From IMG/VR virus record IMGVR_UViG_3300009081_000001, positions 23,060 to 87,059 of that record: a stretch of DNA of 64,000 nt; one strand, given 5' to 3'. Each line of letters starts with the position of its first letter. The first letter of the stretch is position 1. This DNA comes from a virus. The translations under genes were made by a program, and so were the position numbers. The notes under the pieces are model-generated. The model had not been told where the DNA came from. It ran no database searches and saw only the letters and a list, made by a program, of their open reading frames with translations. This document shows positions 3,113-38,178 of this stretch, piece after piece.

Positions 3113-3538
3113 CTATGCTATTCGCTCAAGGCCGTCGGTATTGGTCTTGATGTGCCAGAGCCAACCAGGACCACCGGGAACGGGATCGCCACAGTACTCT
3201 TGCAACGGCCCCGAAACATAGTCATCGCCGTGCATCCACAATTCAACGTGGCCCCTAAGGGTACGAACACAGAGCGCATCGCCTTCAGGAATAAGGTTGC
3301 CGTTCTTCGTTTGGGGAAATATCTCAACCTCCCCCTTTCCAGTATCGGCCACCCGACAGTTGGCAAGCCAATGACCATTGAACCTCACATGACACCGCGA
3401 AGCCAATGGACTTCCACCCTCTACCCTCAAGGCGGGATAGACTACGCTCCTAGATTTGATAAGGCCCACTACCGGCACACAGGCAGCAGCGGCCCATGCA
3501 AGGCATCCACCAAGAAACCCTCTCCTACTTACACTCAC
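3113..3538 (-). CDS. Hypothetical protein with twin-arginine-like N-terminus
   Basis: SRRGFLGGCLAWAAAAC after a GTG start overlapping the upstream stop. Confidence 0.5.
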   Translation of the reverse strand: MSVSRRGFLGGCLAWAAAACVPVVGLIKSRSVVYPALRVEGGSPLASRCHVRFNGHWLANCRVADTGKGEVEIFPQTKNGNLIPEGDALCVRTLRGHVELWMHGDDYVSGPLQEYCGDPVPGGPGWLWHIKTNTDGLERIA

Positions 3539-4217: not shown

Positions 4218-5015
4218 TCCTCTTCCTCCTTATACCCCAACGTCTCGGGCATAAAGTCACACGACCGAACATCATCAGCAAGCAAGTACAGCATGTACCT
4301 CTCCTTCCAGTCAGGATGCCTGATGATCGCCCGAATCATGTCCAACTCCTCACGCCCCAGTTGCAGATTCACCACCAGATCCGTCAACAGCCTCTCCATC
4401 ATCTTTTCCTCCCTTATTTGTTCGTTCAGTCCAAAGGTAATCCCACCACTGGTAAAACGAAGCACCGGGGTATCATCATATATAGAGATACCGTCAGTAT
4501 TCCCCGTCCAAGTACACCCATCCATTCACTTACCCTCCGTCGGAAATCTTACCGCACGTCTTCTTGTGTTCCGCAACCGTTCCTCAATCTGCCCCGCAAG
4601 CTCTACGGACCATAGCGTACCAGAACAGGCCCACAAGACCGCAAGCATCTCGTCTGGTCGCATGAAGATCGTGGTTGGTTCCTCTCTCTCGAAACGGAGA
4701 TAGACTGTATCTGGTTCAATGCCCTCCGCTATACCAGCACTAATTGTACAGTTCTCATAGGGCTGCTCCAGAATAGGGACGCACTTGGCAACACGCCCAT
4801 CTCCAAAATCAATCTCCATGTCACTCCCTATTTCCGTCGGAAATGTAAGCCTGATACGCTGCCTCTAACTCTTCTGGAAAACAGTCCACTTCCCAGGATT
4901 CACCCATCAGCCTCAACCAATTCCCGCTAGAACTACGCTCATACGTGGGCCACTCTTCCCTATCCGTCTCCACAACCCAACTCACATACGGACCATCTAC
5001 ACTAAGAACCTTCAT
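4214..5015 (-). other. Three short hypothetical genes (4214-4525, 4526-4819, 4821-5015)
   Basis: Abutting ORFs with purine-rich RBS. Confidence 0.65.
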
Positions 5016-5153: not shown

Positions 5154-5182
5154 ATTATACTACCATGAACACCTACTGTCAA
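5154..5182 (-). promoter_or_regulatory. sigma70 promoter of the leftward operon
   Basis: TTGACA-17-TATAAT, perfect consensus on the minus strand. Confidence 0.85.
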
Positions 5183-5283
5183 GATTCTCACTACGGTACA
5201 TATTTGCCGCTCATCCTATGAATAGATATAGGGAGATAGGGGGATGGATGCTAGTGGGTATACCCCCCCCTACCCTATCGTAG

Positions 5284-9221: not shown

Positions 9222-11035
9222 ATGGATCTGAATGAGTTTGGGGAGCCTATCTACAAGATGGACCGTAAGACGAGAAGGCGGGTTGGGGCATTAAAGAGGA
9301 TACTGGCAGAGAGGGATAGGTGGAGCGTCGGTTGCGAGATGCGCAGGAGCATTATAGAAAGGCAATTTGGACTGTGCCCGCGTTTTGGCAAGGAGCATGA
9401 TATTGCAGTACTGCGTTCTAGGATCCCCGCTGATGTGTTGGAGCGGGAAGGATTGCTTTAGGGGAGAATGACAAGATGGAGTTCAATCTGTTCGGCTACA
9501 AGGTGACGGTTGTAAGGTTAGACAAGAGCAAGCCGGTGAATTGGAGCGAGGACAAGCTACGTAGTCTGGCTCACAAGATTGATTCGCGGATTGGCCGACC
9601 CTCTAGAATGATGCGCGTCAAGATACTGCGCACGTATATGCCAACCAAGGCAGAGCCGGGGAGCGATGAGTCTATTGCCAATCTCAGGGAGGCGATGGCT
9701 CTCTGTGAGCGAATGTGGCTTGACGGGGGCTATGGTGACGTGGCCTAGCCATTTCCGACGGAAATAGAAAGGGATGACAAGATGGATAAGAAGCAGTTAG
9801 AGAGCCTGGGATGGAAGTTGCGGAGCACGAAGTCTGTGCGTCTGACGGATAGCAAGTTGGAGATTCGGACGCTCGATGGGAGTACTATCACGATTGAGGC
9901 TGTTCACAACTACGTTCAGGAGTACACCGCCCTGGAGATTGAGGTTGTGGACGACGATAGTGACGAGTGGGTAGAACTCGACTAAGAGGGGGAGGGTGAC
10001 AAGATGCGTAGACTGGCTTATAGGGTTGTACTGAATATGGAGTGGTTCTTTCGCCATCAGTGGATAGAGACTAATATGGATCCTCACTACCGCTATTCTG
10101 AGCGAGAGAGGGTGCTGTGGTCTATCTACACCTTTTGGAAACGTGCCCGCATTCGACTGGGGTAGCGGCATTTCCGACGGAAATACACTTTAAGGGAGAG
10201 ATGAGATGGATGAGCTTGCAATGAGTCTGCATTTCAGTACTCACTACAATGGGCTGCAGGCCCTCGATAGGATCAATGAGCAGCGGCTTATGTGGCTGGT
10301 TGCCGATGAGCTGGATATGGACTGCAACCGCTACTATGATGGTGGGTGCATGGACTGTCGGAACTATCACAAGTGCAGGGCTGCGTATCTGCACATGATT
10401 TCCGACGGAAATACAGAAGGGGAGGACCAACATGGACAGTGATACAATCTTGAACCGTGCTGAGGATGCTATTGCCCGTATGTTGAGGGCAGAGCGACGG
10501 GGGGAGCGGCTGGAGGGACTGCTGCGCAAACTAGTAGAAGATGAGCGCAATTTTACCACTGGCTATTGGGTTGCCGTGGATTGCTCGTTGACTTACTGCA
10601 ACTTCTGCCATCAGAGCCACGCTGACAGATATGCAATCGAGCACACGGCTGACTGCCCGGTGCTACTGGCGCGGGCTGCTATTTCCGACGGAAATGAGGA
10701 CGGCCATGCTGTGTCCTAACTGTGGTAAGCCTATCCGGTTGACGTATCGAGCATTGGGGATCATAAGGCATATCTGCCACCGTTGTGGGTGGCGAGAAGG
10801 TTGCTAAGAGGAGGATAGCAGAATGGATAAGATGCGGTGTGAGGGTTGGAGACGCAAGGGTGGCGCTTTTTCATTCGGGCCTGTGAAGTGGTCACAATGC
10901 GAGAATGACGCTATCGTTGTACTCAAGGTCAAACAGGATGACAAAGTAGCCGACTTCCCGGCCTGTATCGAGTGCTGGAATGAGGCGAACGAACGCGGTA
11001 TCAGGGTTCTGGAAGCAAAGCCAATCGTGGAATAG
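9222..11035 (+). other. Cluster of short hypothetical early genes (9222-9461, 9476-9748, 9782-9985, 10206-10442, 10432-10719, 10823-11035)
   Basis: Co-oriented short ORFs each with a GGAGG/GGGAG-type RBS. Confidence 0.65.
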
Positions 11036-21300: not shown

Positions 21301-23124
21301 CATTCTACAGGATGCTAGGCGAGGCAGAAAACCCCGCCTATGTGCTGCAGGGAGGCCCAGGCTTTGGCATTAGGGCTGCTGTGTTTGCCAGTAGGTTTGT
21401 CAAACCAGCAGAGGACCAGGGGCTTTATACCGCTATCTACAACATCGTGTACAACTTCTTCACTGATGGACCAAGCAAGAGGGAGGGATGAATGGATCTA
21501 TCCAAGCTGTTCATCGTGCGTCACTCTGTTACAGAGTATGTGTACACCGAGGAGCGTAAGCTGTTCGATGCACAGGGCAAGGGAGAGGGCTATCTACGTG
21601 AGTTCTCCTATCCCGTAACAGCGAGGTCGGGCAAGGAGTCTCAAGATTTGCTGGTGCGTGGCGTGGCAACCTGCACCGCCAGCTTTGGGTTCAATACCTG
21701 GATTGACTGGGGGGAATGATGTATACCTACAAGGACTTTGCAACCGGGAAGATGCGGCGTACTAGGGGCGAGTTTGAGCAGTGGTCCGAACCCACTGGGC
21801 CACTCAAGGTCAGATACGCCATTTTCAAGAACCCCAAGGGCCGTGTCTGTGTTCCATCTTACTGCCTAACACCAGAAACTAAGGCAGCAATTCCGTCAGT
21901 ACCTAGGTAGAACCTATGTTTGGGTATTGACAACCGTTCAAAGGTATGATACAATGGGCTGTAGTTCAGAACGAGAGAAGGGAGAGCAAGATGAAGTACT
22001 TGAGGGTAACAGTCAGGTTCGCAGACAATCCAGAGGCCAACTACAGTGAGGTACTGCCTGTGAGTGAGTTGGCCGAGAAGTACCCCGAAGCGTCGTCCAT
22101 CTTCTGCAATCCCGAGTTCGTTTCCATGCGCTACACTTTGGACCTGATGATCGTGGACATTCGGGAGGACTAGCATGGAAGGGTACAGGTGCCAAGCCCC
22201 TAACCAGGAAGTGGAGCAGATTGACGCCGAGATCGTAGCAAAGATGAAGTGTCGGCGCTGCAAGTCTCAAATGAGATACGAGCCGTGGACCAGGCCGGGT
22301 AGTTACGTGGCCTTGGCTGTTTGCCCTAACTGTGGGCGAGAAGTGGAGTTCTAATGAAACCCCTGCAGAACATCATCTTTGGTGATACCCTGAGTCGCAT
22401 CGTCGGCCCACTGTACATCAAGTGGAACAGCGCCTCATATCGGTACTACAGCCCCTTTCGCACGGAAAGCGGGAGGCATGGCAGCTTGCAAGTGTGGCGC
22501 ATTCAGGTATTTTGGTAGCAGCATCGGGGCCGGGAGTCACCTTGAGATTTCCGGCCCTGGTACAAATTTTGGGACGGGATTTCAATAGGGGGATGATGGT
22601 ATGACATGGGAAGAGGCTACAAAATTGGCGGTGCATTGTCCTGACGCACTCCCGGCGACGTTGACTGTTGAATCAACGTCTGTACCCCGGCCTGACTTGG
22701 AATCAGTTTTGATGTGCAAAATCAAAGTGAGGCAGGGAAAAGAGCCAGATGGTTGTGACCAGGACCACTGCCCCCATTGGCACTAAGCAACGTTTGTACT
22801 TAGAGAGGAAAAGAGACTATGAAGCAAATGTGCGTGGCTAGGTTCGAGTTTGGCAGTCCATCGCTCACGCTTGTCGAGGTAGTCAAAGAGACGGAGAAGA
22901 CTATCGTTGTCGGCAAGACAGAGAAGGTGATAGGCTATCTCTATGTCGGAAGGCGGCTGCTCAAGGATCAATCCGTCTTTGAAACAGAGGTAGAGGCGTT
23001 AGCCTGGCTTGTAGATCGGGCTGATGCCCACCGCTTACAGAGAGAGAAGGATTATAAGGCGGCTGCACAGCAATACCTAGACCTGCGGTTTCTGTTGGCT
23101 ACCAAAAGAGAGGAACAGGCATGA
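18374..23124 (+). other. Long run of short hypothetical early genes
   Basis: For example 18374-18589, 19270-19587, 19784-20059, 20056-20268, 20265-20822, 20882-21253, 21492-21719, 21716-21910, 22819-23124; RBS-led, many ATGA overlaps. Confidence 0.65.
21910..21972 (+). promoter_or_regulatory. sigma70 promoter with SOS-box-like site and GTTCAGAAC element
   Basis: GAAC-N4-GTTT 21910-21921, TTGACA 21927-21932, 17 bp, TG-n-TACAAT 21950-21955, GTTCAGAAC 21964-21972; near copy of the 7758-7820 promoter. Confidence 0.8.
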
Positions 23125-27835: not shown

Positions 27836-29320
27836 ATGAGTAACGGCATCAAGGAACCGGGAACAGAATATGTGGTAGATGAGGACAAGCTACTCAAGAT
27901 TAGCCACTATGACGAGCGCGACCTTGCGGCATTGCAAGCTATCGGCAACTATGATTCTTTTCAGATCCTCGAAGCAGTCAATGAAGACTCCATTGCTTTC
28001 CGTAAGTGGTTTGTGGATATCACTGGCGACCTGGCAGCGGGCGTTATGCTCTCGCAGATCCACTACTGGCATGGCATCAGCAAACGGGATGGCAAGCCAA
28101 GGCTAAAGGTTGAGAAGGAAGGACACCTATGGCTATGCAAGTCAGACAATGAGTGGTGGAAAGAAGCAAGGTTGACTGAGAAGCAAGCCCGCCGGGCGCG
28201 AGAGATTCTAGAGAAGCAAGGGCTCATCATCTGCAAGCTGTGGCGATTCAGTAATGTCCCACGTATCCACATGAGAATCAACAAGCCAGTGTTTATGTCG
28301 GCGCTGAACGCTGCAATGTGTGAGAAATCCCGATTTGCCCTACAGGGCAAATCAGACTTGCCGCAGGGGGCAAATCAGACTTGCCCTACAGGGCAAAACA
28401 TTAACAGAGACTACTTAACAGAGACTACCATAGAAGATCCCCCCACGCCTGACGGCGATGGGGTACCCTTAAAGGAGGGACAGAATGGACAATCTGATCG
28501 GGTTTATGGAATCACAGCTAGAACTCAACTTGCAACTAGTCGAGGGAATGGCCGGCCTGAGTCGTCGCTTGCGTTCCCTGGAGAAGCAGATGGCGAAGAA
28601 GGAGGCAGAGAACCTACGATTGGCCCTCAAGCTGGTGGACCTGGAGAAGATGGTGAAGCTGCTGACAGAAGCGGGGGGCAGCATGGCGGTGGAGCTGGTA
28701 GTACTGGAGAGCAAGATAGACCAGGCGCGGAAGGCGGCGGAGGCATACTACGACGACGTGCTGAATATCACGGCGAACCTGGGAGTAGACCTGGCAACGG
28801 CGGAGCTGCAACTAGGCAGGCTAATGCTCAAGGTAGCAGACCACCTGCAGGACAAGTAGGGGGCAACTCCGTAATCCACAATCTGCTTAGTGGCACACGA
28901 ACAGAGGGAGACGACGAAGCCCGCCCCAAGTGGCAGATACCAGAGTCACCGGAGCAAGAGGCATTTCTGTCTGTGTGTAGTGCCAAGTGGTTCAAGCCTA
29001 AGCAGAAGAGTAACATCAAGGGGATACTCGCCGCCTTACGAGCCGGGGACATGGCCGGGGATGACGTGTACCAGAAGTGTGCCGAGGCTATAGCAGACAA
29101 GGGGAAACTGGAGAGTCCTTTGCCCCCCTTGCCCCGGTCCTGGTACGAGTGGCGAGAGGGACACGCCAAGGGCCACAGGTGGAGCGTGGATGGATTCGTT
29201 AATGCTCTGCTGGATAGGGACCGGCTGATGGAGCATTGCCAGTATCACTTAAAGACGAAGGGAGTAGTAACAAACGACTATGGCGCTGATCCTTGGTTAG
29301 AGAACCTACCGGGAGGATAG
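27836..29320 (+). CDS. Phage replication initiator-like protein
   Basis: N-terminal winged-helix-like region (ITGDLAAGVMLSQIHYW...WWKEARLTEKQARRAREIL..QGLI), internal iterons, directly upstream of DnaB. Confidence 0.7.
   Translation: MSNGIKEPGTEYVVDEDKLLKISHYDERDLAALQAIGNYDSFQILEAVNEDSIAFRKWFVDITGDLAAGVMLSQIHYWHGISKRDGKPRLKVEKEGHLWLCKSDNEWWKEARLTEKQARRAREILEKQGLIICKLWRFSNVPRIHMRINKPVFMSALNAAMCEKSRFALQGKSDLPQGANQTCPTGQNINRDYLTETTIEDPPTPDGDGVPLKEGQNGQSDRVYGITARTQLATSRGNGRPESSLAFPGEADGEEGGREPTIGPQAGGPGEDGEAADRSGGQHGGGAGSTGEQDRPGAEGGGGILRRRAEYHGEPGSRPGNGGAATRQANAQGSRPPAGQVGGNSVIHNLLSGTRTEGDDEARPKWQIPESPEQEAFLSVCSAKWFKPKQKSNIKGILAALRAGDMAGDDVYQKCAEAIADKGKLESPLPPLPRSWYEWREGHAKGHRWSVDGFVNALLDRDRLMEHCQYHLKTKGVVTNDYGADPWLENLPGG
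28334..28428. repeat. Iteron-like repeats (putative replication origin)
   Basis: TTGCCCTACAGGGCAAA x2 with a degenerate middle copy at 23-bp period, then TTAACAGAGACTAC x2 (28401-28428). Confidence 0.7.
28485..28859 (+). CDS. Coiled-coil protein nested out of frame inside the initiator gene
   Basis: AAGGAGG RBS before ATG; heptad-rich 124 aa; the host frame is G/E/R low-complexity over the same span. Confidence 0.65.
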   Translation: MDNLIGFMESQLELNLQLVEGMAGLSRRLRSLEKQMAKKEAENLRLALKLVDLEKMVKLLTEAGGSMAVELVVLESKIDQARKAAEAYYDDVLNITANLGVDLATAELQLGRLMLKVADHLQDK

Positions 29321-33497: not shown

Positions 33498-34505
33498 AGA
33501 AGCAAACCAAGGACACCATCAGGCAGAAGTTGGATGACGCTGCCCGCTATGCCAAGCAAGCCAAGATGGCAGTGCAACGGGTAGACCGTGCGTCATTCCA
33601 GGCATCCTTGAGGGGTGCAAGGTTCATGCTGGATGCAGCAGAGTACTACTTTAAGGAGGGAATGGAGGAGTAAATGGAAGTCAGGTGGGTATGGGACGGC
33701 TATCACTGGACAGCGATATTCTTTGAGGAAGGCAAGATCCACACTCCAAGCCTTGTCCTACGAGAGCATGAACTTGTTGATGCTCTAAGGCAACTACAAT
33801 ACGATAAGGTATACTTCGAGAAACCTAGGAGCAAGAACGATGAATGAACTAGTGCTTGAGGCAGAGAAGGGCTACCTTGGACCGGCAGTATCACCTAACC
33901 CTATGGTCAAGATACATGGACCGGGGCCAGAAGGGGCAACGTGTGGTGGGTGTGTATACCTGTTCCGCAAGAGGTACACCAGTCGTACCTATCTCAAGTG
34001 TAGTATGCGGGGTGGGCTCACCAGTGGAGCAGCGACAGACCAGCTTGCAGGATGGATGGCCTGTGGATTGTGGGAGGAAACAGACGATGAAGAACAAGAT
34101 CAAGGATAGGTTGGAGGAACCGTGGGCAAAGAAACAGGTGGGACACACATTGGGGAATGTGCTATACTGGGTGCAGAACGGCTACCAGTTCACACAGGAG
34201 GACCGGACTTTGATAGAGCAGCTACATGGCTACTTGCAGGAGCCCTCTTGTTCAGCCTAATGGTCACTCTTGGCTACTTACTGCAACAGGAAGGGGAAAG
34301 CCTGTGGGTAACAACGCGGAGGGAGTAGCATTGCCAACAGTACGCCAGTTGCCAGAGGAGGGGATAGCAGTCATCCGGTGGCAGGAGTGTAACAGACAGA
34401 CTAGGATGGCGCTTAACTGGATGCAAGCATGTGCTCTTTTTGAGGGCACAACGGTCTACGAGTGGATAGATAGGAAGGGACACCTATGAATCACGAATCT
34501 GAAAC

Positions 34506-34534
34506 TTGACAAGGATTCTGAACTATAGTATACT
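34506..34534 (+). promoter_or_regulatory. sigma70 promoter of the RAMP-like operon
   Basis: TTGACA-17-TATACT, then AGGAGG RBS before ATG 34569. Confidence 0.8.
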
Positions 34535-34568
34535 GTTCACGTTCGCAATATAATAGGAGGGAACGAAA

Positions 34569-35189
34569 ATGGTACAAAAGAAATCGGAAGTTGTGGAAGT
34601 ACCGGCACTCAGAATTGAGTTACTGTCAGTTACCTTGGTAGGGGATTCCCCGCTCATCTGTCACCGCTTCTCCAAGAAGGCGAAAAACCAAATCCTTGCC
34701 AGTCAGGGTAAGCGCGTGAAGACACGCGAGGCAAGGGATCCAGAGGGGGAAGGTATGGACGCTGCCTATACTCTGCCCGTCCCTGGAGCCTATGGGTTCC
34801 CCGCATCTGCTTTCAAGCAGGCTGCTGTCAGGGCGGCAAAGCAAGTGCCCGGCATGACAATGGTGGATACACAGGGATACTTCTTTATCAAGGCGGCAAC
34901 GCCCGATGATGCAGAGCAGCTTGTCGGCCCCCTGCGCTACAGCGAAATGCAGATCAACGAGGATGCAGTTCGTCTCGCTGGCCCTGGTAGGCCGGTAGAC
35001 CTGCGCTTTCGCCCCTACTTCCTTAACTGGGAAGTTGACCTTGAGATCGAGTACAATGCCAGCCTTGTCAGCCCAGAGCAGATCGTCTTTCTTCTGGACT
35101 CGGCAGGGTTTGGCGTGGGTGTGGGTGAGTGGAGGCCAGAGAAGGGCGGCAACTATGGTCGCTTCCACGTAAAGAAAGGGAATGAATAA
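34569..35189 (+). CDS. Stand-alone Cas7/RAMP-like protein
   Basis: RAMP-like order of motifs: VTLVGDSPLI first strand, FPASAFKQA helix, RFRPYF..W strand, C-terminal glycine-rich loop AGFGVGVGEWRPEKGGNYGRF. Confidence 0.75.
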   Translation: MVQKKSEVVEVPALRIELLSVTLVGDSPLICHRFSKKAKNQILASQGKRVKTREARDPEGEGMDAAYTLPVPGAYGFPASAFKQAAVRAAKQVPGMTMVDTQGYFFIKAATPDDAEQLVGPLRYSEMQINEDAVRLAGPGRPVDLRFRPYFLNWEVDLEIEYNASLVSPEQIVFLLDSAGFGVGVGEWRPEKGGNYGRFHVKKGNE

Positions 35190-35191
35190 CT

Positions 35192-35749
35192 ATGTGGATG
35201 CCCGTCGAAGAGAGTGGTCGCTGTATCTACAGGTGCAAACCTGGCAGTCCTGTACCAGATGCACGAGCGCAAGAGATTGGAGAGTACATTGCTGACCTGG
35301 AAGAGAACAGCGGCATTACTCCTCATATCTTGCTCCAGGATGCTACTAACCCCGAGTCCAAGCTACACGAGTTCTTTGAGTGGGACGATAAGAAGGCTGG
35401 CTACCACTGGCGTCTGCAGCAGGCGCGGCAGATCATCAATCACTTTGAGATCGTCGTGGTCAATACCCGCGAGGAAGAAGAGACAAGGGTACGCGCCTGG
35501 CACAGTATCAACATCCGGGTTCAACCCCCCAAAGGACAGGAGTTTCACACGGAGACTGACAACGGGGAGCCCGAAATGCAACGGGTGTACGTCAACGCTA
35601 TTCAGGCCCTCTCAGTAGAAGACACACGCAAGCAGGTTGTAGCCAACGCCCTCAGAGAATTGAACGGCTGGCGTCATCGCTATCAGACATACGACGAGTT
35701 CAATCCTATCTTCACCGGGATTGAGCAGCTTAGTCTTGCCGAGGCATAG
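35192..35749 (+). CDS. Partner protein of the RAMP-like gene (function unknown)
   Basis: Begins 2 bp after the RAMP-like stop; LHEFFEWDD..AG..WRLQQARQII motif. Confidence 0.75.
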   Translation: MWMPVEESGRCIYRCKPGSPVPDARAQEIGEYIADLEENSGITPHILLQDATNPESKLHEFFEWDDKKAGYHWRLQQARQIINHFEIVVVNTREEEETRVRAWHSINIRVQPPKGQEFHTETDNGEPEMQRVYVNAIQALSVEDTRKQVVANALRELNGWRHRYQTYDEFNPIFTGIEQLSLAEA

Positions 35750-36120
35750 GCAGGCAAGGCGAGGCGTAGCGGGGCTTGTTGAGGCTTGGTGGGGTTAGGC
35801 ACGGCGCGGTGTGGCAAGGCAGTCTCGGCTAGGCGTGGCGTGGCCTGGCCCGGCCCGGCGCGGTGTGGCAGGCAAGGTATGGCAAGGCGGTGCAGGGTGT
35901 GACAAGGCCAGGCGAGGCTAGGCAGGCGAGGACCGGCGGGGCTTGTCACGGTGGGGCACGGCACGGCGGGGCAGGCAAGGTATGTCATGGCGGGGCAGGC
36001 GTGGCGATGTGTGGCGAGGCGAGGCGAGGCGCGGCGCGGCTGGGCGAGGTTCGGCGGGCGCGGCCTGGATTGGCGAGGCGGGGCACGTTCTGGCTAGGCT
36101 TGGTGGGGCAGGCAAGGTTT
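35749..36120 (+). ncRNA. GGY-NN pentamer array (candidate guide-RNA array)
   Basis: 68 pentamers (57 exact GGY-NN, 11 with one mismatch) and eight 4-nt GGCA/GGCG steps tile 372 bp exactly. Confidence 0.8.
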
Positions 36121-36162
36121 CATTTCCGTCGGAAATAGAAAACTACAAGAAGGAGAAAGAGA

Positions 36163-36732
36163 ATGCCTAAGCAGTATACGGTTTACTGGACCAATTACTG
36201 GACCAACGAGTACATGATACCTCTCAGCTTTGCTGCAGAGTCAATGAGATACGACCCCGAGCAAAAAGCCTACGAGTTCAAGACAGATGTTGGGGGGTTC
36301 CTCATCCCCAAGCAGCAAGTCCTCTATGTAGAGTGCGGCAAGCACGTCGGCCCGGCGCAAGCCTTGATAGAAGCAGGAAAGAGGGCCGCTCAGAAGAGGG
36401 GCAAGAACATAGCCATGACAGAGATTGATATAGACGAACTGCTGTCTACCCTGCCACCGGGTGAGGATGATGAATGGGACGTAGCGTTCACGGAGGATGA
36501 TATAAACGAGGCCAAGCGTAACAGGCTCTTTGGCCCTACAACAACTCAGAAGAGAGAGCTGGTAATGGCGGCACTCGCGATCCGAGATGCAATCGAGGAA
36601 TGGGGCTGTGTAAAAGCTCTTGCTTGCGATGACGATGAAAGCACATGGCGAGACTCCCTACCGGAAACCATAATGGCTGCCTATGATAAACTAGACGCTG
36701 CACTCTCTCCACTCTATGGCGACCCACTGTAG
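36163..36732 (+). CDS. Hypothetical protein
   Basis: AAGGAG RBS, 189 aa. Confidence 0.7.
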   Translation: MPKQYTVYWTNYWTNEYMIPLSFAAESMRYDPEQKAYEFKTDVGGFLIPKQQVLYVECGKHVGPAQALIEAGKRAAQKRGKNIAMTEIDIDELLSTLPPGEDDEWDVAFTEDDINEAKRNRLFGPTTTQKRELVMAALAIRDAIEEWGCVKALACDDDESTWRDSLPETIMAAYDKLDAALSPLYGDPL

Positions 36733-36759
36733 TCTATTTCCGTCGGAAATGAGGACTGA

Positions 36760-38178
36760 ATGAGAGCGGGAATCATGGCGAGGGTGAGCACCGAGGAGCA
36801 GCTTGCGGGCTATTCTATCGGCGCTCAGGTAGATGCAATGCTCAAGTTCTGCGAGGAACAGGGCTGGCAGGTCATGGAAAGGTACATCGAAGAGGGTGTA
36901 TCTGGCACAACGTCTAACCGGCCCGAGCTACAGAGAGCTTTGCGCGATGCAGAAGCGGGGAAACTAGATGTGCTGCTTACCCACCAGCTTGACCGCTTTT
37001 ACCGAAACCTGCGCCTACAGATCGAGACGCTTGGTAAGCTAGGAGAGATGGGAGTTGGGTATCTATCTATCACCGAGAGGATTGACTACTCAACTCCCAC
37101 CGGTATGCTATTCATGCAGATGTTGGGCGCGTTCAACGAGTACTATTCCAGCAATCTGGCACGCGAGGTTAGGAAGGGCAAGCAGGGTAGAGCAGAGAGT
37201 GGTTTGACCAATGCAACGTTCTTGCCCCACGGTTACAAGAGGGTAGAGAAGGAAGCCGTCATAGAACCAGTAAGGGCAGAGACAATCCATTACATCTTCA
37301 AGCTATATGCAACAGGGCTTTACTCCTATCGGGCAATTGCAGATAGGCTCAATGCAGAAGGACACCCCGCAAGCAGTAGGAGTAAGGGAAAGTGGATCTG
37401 GCAAGCAGTGAGGGGTATCATTGAGAATCCCTACTACATCGGTCTTATCAGGCACAACGAAAAGATGTATCAGGGCAAGCACGAACCTATCATCGAGCGC
37501 AAGTTGTGGGATATGGCGCAACGAGTGAGGGAACAACGTGCAACATCGTACACTCATTCGAGGACAAAGGAAACTTTCATCTTGCGCGGCACCGGCCACT
37601 GTCTTGCCTGTGGTAGTAGGCTGTATGCAGAGAGTCATGGGAAGAATAGGTACTACCGTTGCAGTGGAAACCAAAAGGGGGTAAGTTGCACAGTTCCATT
37701 TGCAAGGGTGGAAAAGGTAGATGCAAGTTTGGCAGAGCTTGTATCTCACGCGCAACTACCAGGAAACTGGCGTGAAGAGATTGCAAGAGCTATGCAAGGG
37801 CCAGTTTCCAACGATGGCAACAAGCGCAAGTACTTGCAAGAGAAGTTGCGCCGGTTGCGTGAGCTGTACCTTGAGGATGACTTTACCAAGGAGGAGTACA
37901 ATCAAAGGAAACGTGAATTGGAAAGTGAGATTGCAAGGCTACAACCACCAGGGAAACCAGACGACATTGACGCCGAGTTGATTGCAAACCTGAGTAAACT
38001 GTGGGAGGGAGCTGAGTTGCAGCAACGCACCGACCTTGCAAACATCCTCTTTCGTAGTGTAGAGGTAGATATGCAAGAGGAAAGGGTAGTTTCCTTTGAG
38101 TCGTACCCCGAACATGCAATGTTGTTCCGGCTTATCTTTGAGGAAAGGGAAGGGAAGTTCTACAATGGACAGGCATAA
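36760..38178 (+). CDS. Large serine recombinase (integrase)
   Basis: ARVSTEEQ catalytic Ser, SG...RPEL, LDRFYRN, recombinase domain, CLACG..YYRC..C zinc ribbon, coiled coil. Confidence 0.95.
   Translation: MRAGIMARVSTEEQLAGYSIGAQVDAMLKFCEEQGWQVMERYIEEGVSGTTSNRPELQRALRDAEAGKLDVLLTHQLDRFYRNLRLQIETLGKLGEMGVGYLSITERIDYSTPTGMLFMQMLGAFNEYYSSNLAREVRKGKQGRAESGLTNATFLPHGYKRVEKEAVIEPVRAETIHYIFKLYATGLYSYRAIADRLNAEGHPASSRSKGKWIWQAVRGIIENPYYIGLIRHNEKMYQGKHEPIIERKLWDMAQRVREQRATSYTHSRTKETFILRGTGHCLACGSRLYAESHGKNRYYRCSGNQKGVSCTVPFARVEKVDASLAELVSHAQLPGNWREEIARAMQGPVSNDGNKRKYLQEKLRRLRELYLEDDFTKEEYNQRKRELESEIARLQPPGKPDDIDAELIANLSKLWEGAELQQRTDLANILFRSVEVDMQEERVVSFESYPEHAMLFRLIFEEREGKFYNGQA

Follow-up and report, generated by a model that had tools for sequence, protein, structure and literature searches.

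VIPR (Viral Interference Programmable Repeat) has been defined, and its mechanism tested, in two recent studies (bioRxiv 10.64898/2026.04.26.720920 and 10.64898/2026.04.26.720927), the second of which presents the structures. The biology of VIPR is treated in 10.64898/2026.10.15.759431, and a genomic-language-model survey recovers VIPR arrays (10.64898/2026.10.21.760802). A VIPR system is composed of a minimal RAMP protein (Vipr), usually an accessory gene (vap), and guide RNAs termed vrRNAs, which contain 9 to 16 YNNGG repeats; seven types have been described (10.64898/2026.04.26.720920). One Vipr protomer binds per YNNGG repeat, with the GGY being sequestered and the NN pairing with double-stranded DNA (10.64898/2026.04.26.720920, 10.64898/2026.04.26.720927). 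Pairing passes over every third base of the target and leads to silencing of transcription, for the most part that of rival mobile elements (10.64898/2026.04.26.720920). Here we describe a locus within 64,000 nucleotides of viral DNA (positions 23,060 to 87,059 of IMG/VR record IMGVR_UViG_3300009081_000001; this whole stretch is referred to as the window) that, with a probability of about 0.92, is a genuine VIPR system on a complete temperate phage genome.

A sequence-only reading of the window had pointed to a consensus promoter, a gene for a 206-amino-acid protein, a partner gene for a 185-amino-acid protein, and a periodic array as a candidate non-CRISPR RNA-guided system, and it had named VIPR as a similar phage architecture. 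All four elements were recovered, with the array overlapping the stop codon of the partner gene, and the name is confirmed by the two studies cited above. The polymerization in 5-nucleotide steps that had been proposed, with GGY held and NN presented, is the published VIPR mechanism, and silencing rather than cutting is the published VIPR outcome; by homology, both would apply to this locus, whose operon encodes no nuclease. That the locus is a genuine VIPR system therefore supports the interpretation given in that reading, with the exception of its novelty, as a non-CRISPR RNA-guided system of this kind is already in print.

Vipr, its array, and related loci

The view of the 206-amino-acid protein as a lone Cas7-like RAMP holds up on three counts, namely, a sequence match to the Vipr of Escherichia phage SUSP1, retention of the GG-binding residues, and a structural model that finds Cas7-family RAMPs. 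The only significant sequence match in the PDB is entry 36pp, "SUSP1 Vipr protein," with an E value of 1.1e-6 for the single sequence and 5.6e-10 for a profile built from 40 homologues. Against the SUSP2 Vipr, hhalign gave a probability of 97% (E value, 5.7e-11), and BLASTP, run as a single pairwise comparison, aligned residues 16 to 206 of the query over 198 columns at 21% identity (E value, 1e-13). The protein also matches phrog_4652, to which PHROGs assigns no function (E value, 7.6e-24), and searches of Pfam, NCBIfam, and PADLOC returned no match for either this protein or the 185-amino-acid protein. The residues that bind GG and the pyrimidine in SUSP1 Vipr have counterparts here: H17, R138, W178, and R179 correspond to H32, R148, W188, and R189, respectively, and D177 corresponds to E187, a conservative D-to-E change, while K33, which contacts the target strand in SUSP1 Vipr, aligns with K48. 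Residues H32, R148, and R189 are invariant across the homologue alignments. The C-terminal glycine-rich loop noticed earlier is real as well; it spans residues 180 to 197 and is conserved in the 40 homologues, among which G180, G184, G186, R189, and P190 are invariant and W188 is nearly so.

An AlphaFold2 model of the protein (predicted local distance difference test [pLDDT] score of 86.8) has the Cas7-type RAMP fold that had been anticipated. In a Foldseek search, 60 PDB chains matched this model at an E value of ≤0.001, and among the matches listed, all were Cas7-family RAMPs, comprising Csm3, type VII Cas7, Cmr4, and Cas7-11 structures, with Csm3 (7uzw_A; E value, 2.6e-5) as the best. The minimal RAMP architecture was judged from these whole-model matches and from conservation of the glycine-rich loop rather than from superposition of sub-domains on a Vipr structure. 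Taken together, sequence comparison and modeling identify the 206-amino-acid protein as Vipr. The complete genome encodes one Vipr-family gene, and the reading that cas genes and CRISPR are absent fits the searches made, in which neither Cas1 (PF01867) nor the Pfam RAMPs (PF03787) matched in the complete genome, other cas families not having been searched one by one, and a tandem-array search found no CRISPR-like repeat array.

The array consists of 61 canonical NNNGG pentamers, or 66 in-register units if degenerate ones are included, with the consensus YNNGG. Of these 66 units, 64 begin with a pyrimidine (C or T), and G occupies the fourth position in 63 and the fifth in 61; the second and third positions vary. 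Its pentamer-chain score is 199.5, versus 34 for the next best place in the 87-kb genome, and the maxima in shuffled sequences were 24 for 64-kb sequences and 74 when the G-rich composition of the array itself (50% G) was kept. It is the sole pentamer array of its type in the window and in the complete genome, and it lies on the plus strand. A weak 10-unit NNNGG run with a score of 34, located outside the window on the minus strand (genome positions 9633 to 9695), was rejected as a guide; it is inside a Trp/Gly-rich open frame and scores near the shuffle range. An Rfam search found no known RNA family in the array, the single subthreshold match in the region being on the opposite strand, upstream of the array.

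The same arrangement recurs in relatives. Eighty IMG/VR loci encoding a Vipr homologue were compared; in about 70 of them, a pentamer array adjoins vipr on its strand, and several of the others end just after the genes. A homologue of the partner gene is found in 66 of the 80 loci, nearly always directly after vipr and ahead of the array. The arrays of these relatives contain 4,534 pentamers, in which position 1 is a pyrimidine in 90% and positions 2 and 3 are close to random. Their register is broken most commonly by CAGG (519 instances), followed by a single t (118), CGGG (52), and cagt (27), and clean arrays show runs of 9 to 16 units between CAGG steps, for example, 13-16-10, 11-9-9, and 11-12-10-11-9. 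Nothing around the 4-nucleotide step is conserved in the relatives beyond the step itself. An in-register parse divides the array of this phage into segments S1 to S7 (Table 1), and its delimiter grammar is shared with the relatives. The register breaks here are likewise 4-nucleotide units, with six CAGG (the first before S1 and the last closing the array), one cagt, and one CGGG, and the in-register runs between them are 13, 9, 10, 9, 4, 11, and 10 units long. The short segment S5 is identical in 17 of 20 bases to the first four units of S3 (35873 to 35892); it looks like a shortened copy of that stretch and probably does not function as a guide. In addition, the motif GGCAGGCAAGGTAT is found twice, at 35867 and 35970. 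The S5/S3 identity and the presence of this motif at two delimiters suggest that the array has grown or shrunk there by duplication or recombination.

The published skip rule was examined by scanning 606 kb of related loci, their arrays masked, with 256 CAGG-delimited guides (250 from relatives and 6 from this phage); a strong match was defined as agreement at ≥90% of NN positions, and other skips and shuffled unit orders served as controls. With a 1-nucleotide skip, 17 strong matches were obtained, compared with 0 for skips of 0, 2, and 3 nucleotides and 0 to 2 for shuffled unit orders. The 17 matches come from two guides, one each from loci L057 and L062, and they are located in the partner genes of other VIPR loci. 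They are in frame on conserved partner-gene motifs, the first of which is GLIRSVVAIY, and the skipped base is the wobble position. The complementarity stops precisely at the flanking CAGG steps, and degenerate units within these guides still carry matching NN. The published 1-nucleotide-skip (NNx) rule thus holds in this clade, as shown in relatives.

The L057 guide, a 10-unit segment at positions 5181 to 5230 of that locus, matches 19 of the 20 NN positions of the GLIRSVVAIY motif in at least a dozen rival loci (L061:4870, L048:4906, L011:4891, and others) and only 15 of 20 in the partner gene of its own locus (position 4891), in which the Leu, Arg, and Ser residues of the motif are encoded by TTA, AGG, and AGC, respectively, from the alternative codon families. 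The codon families used in its own gene make this look like self/non-self discrimination by codon-family choice. Such an escape is possible at Leu, Arg, and Ser because these are the only residues for which the first two codon letters can change silently; it was observed once, in this one relative. As a separate observation, two guides from different loci (L013:1536 and L002:5839) converge on L003:8332-8380, which they match at 23 of 26 and 17 of 20 NN positions, respectively. By eye, this site is the conserved KRAYVLADNQLA motif of a candidate gene for a protein with a ParB-like domain, of a kind often fused to phage DNA methyltransferases.

By homology with the characterized systems, the locus would most likely work as follows. 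A single transcript, driven from the promoter upstream of vipr, would carry both genes as well as the array. Vipr protomers would bind the array RNA, one per YNNGG unit, holding the GG via H32, R148, E187, and W188 and the pyrimidine via R189 and neighboring residues. The exposed NN dinucleotides would then pair with double-stranded DNA reading NNxNNx, with every third base being skipped, and the bound filament would silence transcription. The 4-nucleotide steps, most of which are CAGG, would break the 5-nucleotide register and in this way give six guide-sized units of 9 to 13 repeats and one 4-unit remnant, and the likely targets would be rival mobile elements. The partner protein, which is weakly winged-helix-like in its model, would probably assist at the DNA. 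For the clade as a whole, we tentatively propose, at somewhat short of even odds, that guides are set only by the register-breaking 4-nucleotide CAGG step, that the Vipr filament phases and delimits them while exposed RNA is trimmed, with no need for a tail, a ribozyme, or a dedicated nuclease, and that self is told from rival by codon-family choice at Leu, Arg, and Ser.

Counterevidence and alternative explanations

The assignment as a VIPR system rests on the anatomy, homology, fold, and gene order of the locus and on the skip rule and delimiters in its relatives, and several points weigh against it. The identity to characterized Vipr proteins is only about 21%, and the HMMER and hhalign support is restricted to the C-terminal 60 to 80 residues. 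Type II, on which all experiments were done, has another partner gene and another array architecture, and in the defining study, confirmation by small-RNA sequencing is stated for the ribozyme and single-vrRNA architectures and not for the staggered one (10.64898/2026.04.26.720920), to which this array probably belongs (see below). Among the 66 units, 7 are degenerate, and segment S5 comprises only 4 units, so part of the array may be decaying. Transcription of the array, formation of a ribonucleoprotein, silencing, and the role of the partner protein are ascribed to this locus by homology. Lastly, no natural target of the guides of this phage was found in the searches made.

These searches covered several collections. 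In the guide scan, the guides of this phage gave no match in the 80 related loci. This genome, in turn, was not matched above controls by any guide of the relatives. The exact NNx patterns of S1, S2, S3, S6, and S7 had 0 matches in viral contigs. The full 26-base NNx pattern of S1 had no exact match in viral, metagenome, or genome collections, and its 20-base core had none in viral contigs. An 18-base core of S1 was found at 25 places in genome contigs, 20 of which are one orthologous Peptidase M50 family gene of Solirubrobacterales and 5 of which are scattered; at these 25 places, the remainder of S1 agrees at chance level, with 19 to 21 of the 26 NN positions matching and 18 at one place. 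A reading of S1 as a ParM/StbA-like motif is thus not supported, the orthologous gene being of the Peptidase M50 family rather than ParM.

It is conceivable that this is a VIPR system that naturally silences genes of the host chromosome or controls the lysogeny of the phage itself rather than fighting rival phages, but we consider this unlikely. The locus does adjoin an integrase module and has a strong host-type promoter ahead of it, a setting common for genes expressed during lysogeny, and segment S7 matches at 20 of 20 NN positions, in frame, in genes for PQQ/BamB-like beta-propeller proteins on three apparently cellular metagenome contigs. However, for 20 specified bases this number is about what chance would give (approximately 1 expected; three exact matches, two of which are near-identical, leaving two independent ones, all counted without shuffled controls), and none of the other guides converges on the three contigs. 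Furthermore, no guide matches the phage's own genome, at any skip length, above guides with shuffled unit order, and the published natural targets are mostly mobile elements.

An action on RNA, that is, on rival transcripts instead of double-stranded DNA and in the manner of type III Cas7 filaments, is improbable. It would agree with the nearest structural neighbors of the model, which are the RNA-targeting proteins Csm3, Cmr4, and Cas7-11, and with the reported ability of Vipr to form a guide-RNA duplex with single-stranded RNA (cryo-electron microscopy study, 10.64898/2026.04.26.720927). The characterized systems, however, target both DNA strands, and completion of the filament requires the DNA third strand (10.64898/2026.04.26.720920, 10.64898/2026.04.26.720927); moreover, the lysine that contacts the target strand is kept as K48. 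The 17 strong matches in the relatives all have the sense orientation, and this does not discriminate between action on RNA and action on DNA.

We regard it as still less probable that the locus is a decaying or inactive remnant whose array has become drifting repeat DNA and has ceased to give working guides. The degenerate units, the resemblance of the 4-unit S5 to a truncated duplicate, and the absence of a target in our scans would be in line with decay, but both genes are intact and have all key residues, the promoter and ribosome-binding site deviate little from consensus, and the two G positions are retained at 61 to 63 of the 66 units. The matching NN carried by degenerate units in the relatives' validated guides indicates that such degeneracy is tolerated, which also counts against a remnant. 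Finally, the idea that the tract is unrelated to Vipr and is instead a G-quadruplex, a recombination tract, or part of a Gly/Arg-rich open reading frame at 35863 to 36138 is scarcely credible despite its G content and the 91-amino-acid open frame that overlaps it, as about 70 of 80 unrelated viral contigs have a similar tract beside their Vipr homologue, always on the strand of the gene, near-random positions 2 and 3 between fixed flanking letters are not a coding pattern, and it is only under the published rule that the guides of relatives match rival genes.

Operon layout, partner protein, and genomic neighborhood

The coordinates of the VIPR locus are listed in Table 1. A scan of a 2.2-kb region found 2 promoter-like sites, versus 0.8 expected, and no second good site upstream of the array; the site ahead of vipr is presumed to be the start of a joint transcript of vipr, the partner gene, and the array. 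The array overlaps the last codons and the TAG stop (35747 to 35749) of the partner gene. No intrinsic terminator was found between positions 34200 and 36400. The palindrome TTTCCGWCGGAAA past the end of the array may give the transcript a hairpin at its 3' end.

Table 1. Features of the VIPR locus, with positions counted from the first nucleotide of the window
Feature	Position	Strand	Description
Promoter-like site, sigma-70 type	34506-34534	+	TTGACA-17-TATACT; 11 of 12 consensus positions; function inferred
Ribosome-binding site	34555-34560	+	AGGAGG, 8 nucleotides ahead of the vipr ATG; read from sequence
vipr	34569-35189	+	206-amino-acid open reading frame; minimal RAMP with RRM core, thumb, and glycine-rich loop (residues 180-197)
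Accessory gene (vap-like)	35192-35749	+	185-amino-acid open reading frame; begins 2 nucleotides after vipr
vrRNA array	35740-36117	+	378 bp; dynamic-programming parse; same strand as vipr; without tails or ribozymes
Candidate guide S1	35755-35819	+	13 units (2 degenerate), in-register parse; preceded by the first CAGG (35751-35754)
Candidate guide S2	35824-35868	+	9 canonical units; preceded by cagt (35820-35823)
Candidate guide S3	35873-35922	+	10 units; preceded by CAGG (35869-35872)
Candidate guide S4	35927-35971	+	9 units; preceded by CAGG (35923-35926)
Short segment S5	35976-35995	+	4 units; preceded by CAGG (35972-35975)
Candidate guide S6	36000-36054	+	11 units; preceded by CAGG (35996-35999)
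Candidate guide S7	36059-36108	+	10 units; preceded by CGGG (36055-36058); closed by CAGG (36109-36112) and unit CAAGG
Palindrome TTTCCGWCGGAAA, one copy	36123-36135		5 nucleotides past the array end

The 185-amino-acid partner protein matches phrog_15946 (E value, 7.7e-18), and its family shares the conserved motif PLHxxFEWDDxxAAxxxRLxQAR. A Foldseek search with its model (pLDDT score of 93.6) found no clear solved relative. VIA-align gave weak Z scores of 5 to 6 to assorted winged-helix domains over residues ~16 to 141, and the C terminus (residues 142 to 185) is a helical hairpin in the model. This weak winged-helix likeness agrees with the description of several vap genes as coding for winged-helix-like DNA binders (10.64898/2026.04.26.720920). 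A profile of the partner family compared by hhalign with the product of the gene after vipr in SUSP2 gave a probability of 0.14%, indicating that the two are unrelated, and tblastn with the partner protein found no Felix-O1-like phage. An identity as Cas11 was considered following a weak phmmer match to the type I-C Cas11c/Cas8c "CT1133 family" (E value, ~0.03), and it was dropped; the match vanished when a 43-sequence profile of the partner family was used, and there was no Foldseek support. The profile gave instead summed subthreshold matches to TALE repeats via a short LTPxxVV motif, none of which was individually significant.

The source record is a virus genome of 87,059 bp, of which the window is the right-hand 64 kb. 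It carries direct terminal repeats, and CheckV estimates it to be 100% complete; phage replication genes as well as an integrase are encoded in the window. DNA of this phage is present in one sequencing run, a freshwater sediment metagenome that is the probable source sample, and no RNA run was found to contain it. The carrier of the locus is a complete, temperate, uncultured phage genome from freshwater sediment.

Directly 3' of the array, a gene for a 189-amino-acid protein (36163 to 36732) has a faint excisionase match (E value, 0.007), and ~600 bp downstream of the VIPR locus, positions 36760 to 38178 encode a large serine recombinase (integrase) that matches phrog_95 (E value, 5.7e-106). 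Since these two genes directly follow the array, the VIPR locus adjoins a lysogeny module. The palindrome TTTCCGWCGGAAA is present in 37 copies in the window (1067 to 60106), versus 0 in 100 shuffles; the copies are found at gene junctions and in gene interiors, and one of them (36737 to 36749) lies just 5' of the integrase gene. The motif could be a hairpin, a protein-binding site, or a motif related to methylation or restriction. Elsewhere in the window, a 23-bp unit with an inverted repeat is present in 2.7 copies at 28335 to 28397, inside a gene (27836 to 29320) whose product matches DnaD-like helicase-loader and replication-initiator O-like families; these repeats are plausibly origin iterons.

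Comparison with described systems

VIPR is a newly described form of RNA-based DNA recognition and possibly a forerunner of CRISPR, and the locus described here adds nothing to that principle. It shares with the described systems a lone minimal RAMP that is homologous to Vipr and keeps the GG-binding residues, a two-gene operon that includes an accessory gene, adjacent YNNGG repeats with variable NN, a location on a phage, and the lack of cas genes in the searches made. The 1-nucleotide-skip rule and the targeting of rival VIPR genes hold in its relatives as well. Because it comes from an IMG/VR metagenome phage, the locus is probably outside the set of 667 systems that the defining study derived from NCBI.

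Only the type II systems of Escherichia phages SUSP1 and SUSP2 and of a Pseudomonas fulva prophage have been characterized experimentally and structurally. The Vipr of this locus is homologous to theirs over its full length and has the same glycine-rich loop motif (GVG-D/E-WRP), and in both cases, vipr is followed by a small gene. In contrast, the small gene of SUSP2 is unrelated to the partner gene, as noted above, and SUSP2 has four separate short runs giving vrRNAs of 7 to 12 repeats, which each have a 3' tail and are located on both sides of the genes, whereas the locus described here has a single contiguous array without tails, placed after the partner gene, in which only 4-nucleotide steps part the guides. 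Judged from sequence, the locus is not of the characterized type II, as it has neither the vap1-type accessory gene nor tailed, separate vrRNAs. The legend of figure S18 in the defining study (10.64898/2026.04.26.720920) mentions "staggered" vrRNA arrays, in which neighboring vrRNAs overlap by 1 nucleotide in a contiguous array. Since a 4-nucleotide step in a 5-nucleotide register amounts to a 1-nucleotide overlap, the array probably corresponds, going by this legend, to the staggered class.

Compared with the Cas7-family backbones of CRISPR effectors (Csm3, Cmr4, type VII Cas7, and Cas7-11), the Vipr model belongs to the same fold family (Foldseek E values of 2.6e-5 to 6e-4; probability, ~1.0), although the TM-scores are only 0.4 to 0.5 and the sequence identity is 10 to 15%. 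These proteins likewise place one subunit on each fixed increment of the guide RNA and flip bases by means of a thumb. Unlike them, VIPR uses a step of 5 rather than 6 nucleotides and leaves three guide bases and one target base unpaired per step, and unlike class 1 CRISPR effectors, it has no Cas5, Cas6, Cas10, Cas11, Cas1-2, or repeat-spacer array.

What is specific here is the combination of a complete temperate genome, a partner gene that is not of type II, and a tail-less, CAGG-punctuated array, which makes the locus a clean complete-genome example of a clade on which no experiment has been reported. This clade is large, with 1,458 Vipr homologues at an E value of ≤1e-5, and tblastn with Vipr found 153 cultured-phage records, the Felix-O1-like group that contains the SUSP phages being among them. 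The comparison yields predictions that concern the delimiter grammar, the skip rule in the clade, and guides aimed at the partner genes of rivals, and the clade is easily testable at the bench because cultured Gordonia and Mycobacterium phages are included in it. Gordonia phage ODay, Mycobacterium phage Saal, and their relatives have Vipr proteins that are 36 to 41% identical to the one described here and arrays that are likewise punctuated by CAGG; the same partner-gene family is present, too, in the Mycobacterium phages and in Gordonia phages Pipp and UmaThurman. The order of the elements differs, however, with the array directly following vipr in ODay and preceding it in Saal. In the annotations of these phages, the Vipr-family genes are listed as "hypothetical protein" and the arrays are unannotated, as is the case for the arrays at 2097 to 2347 in Saal (KJ025956.1) and at 3114 to 3287 in ODay (MW534375.1), both of which lie next to Vipr homologues. 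In Saal, the VIPR-like locus is located by genes for an immunity repressor and an antirepressor, and the array overlaps with the start annotated for gene 51.

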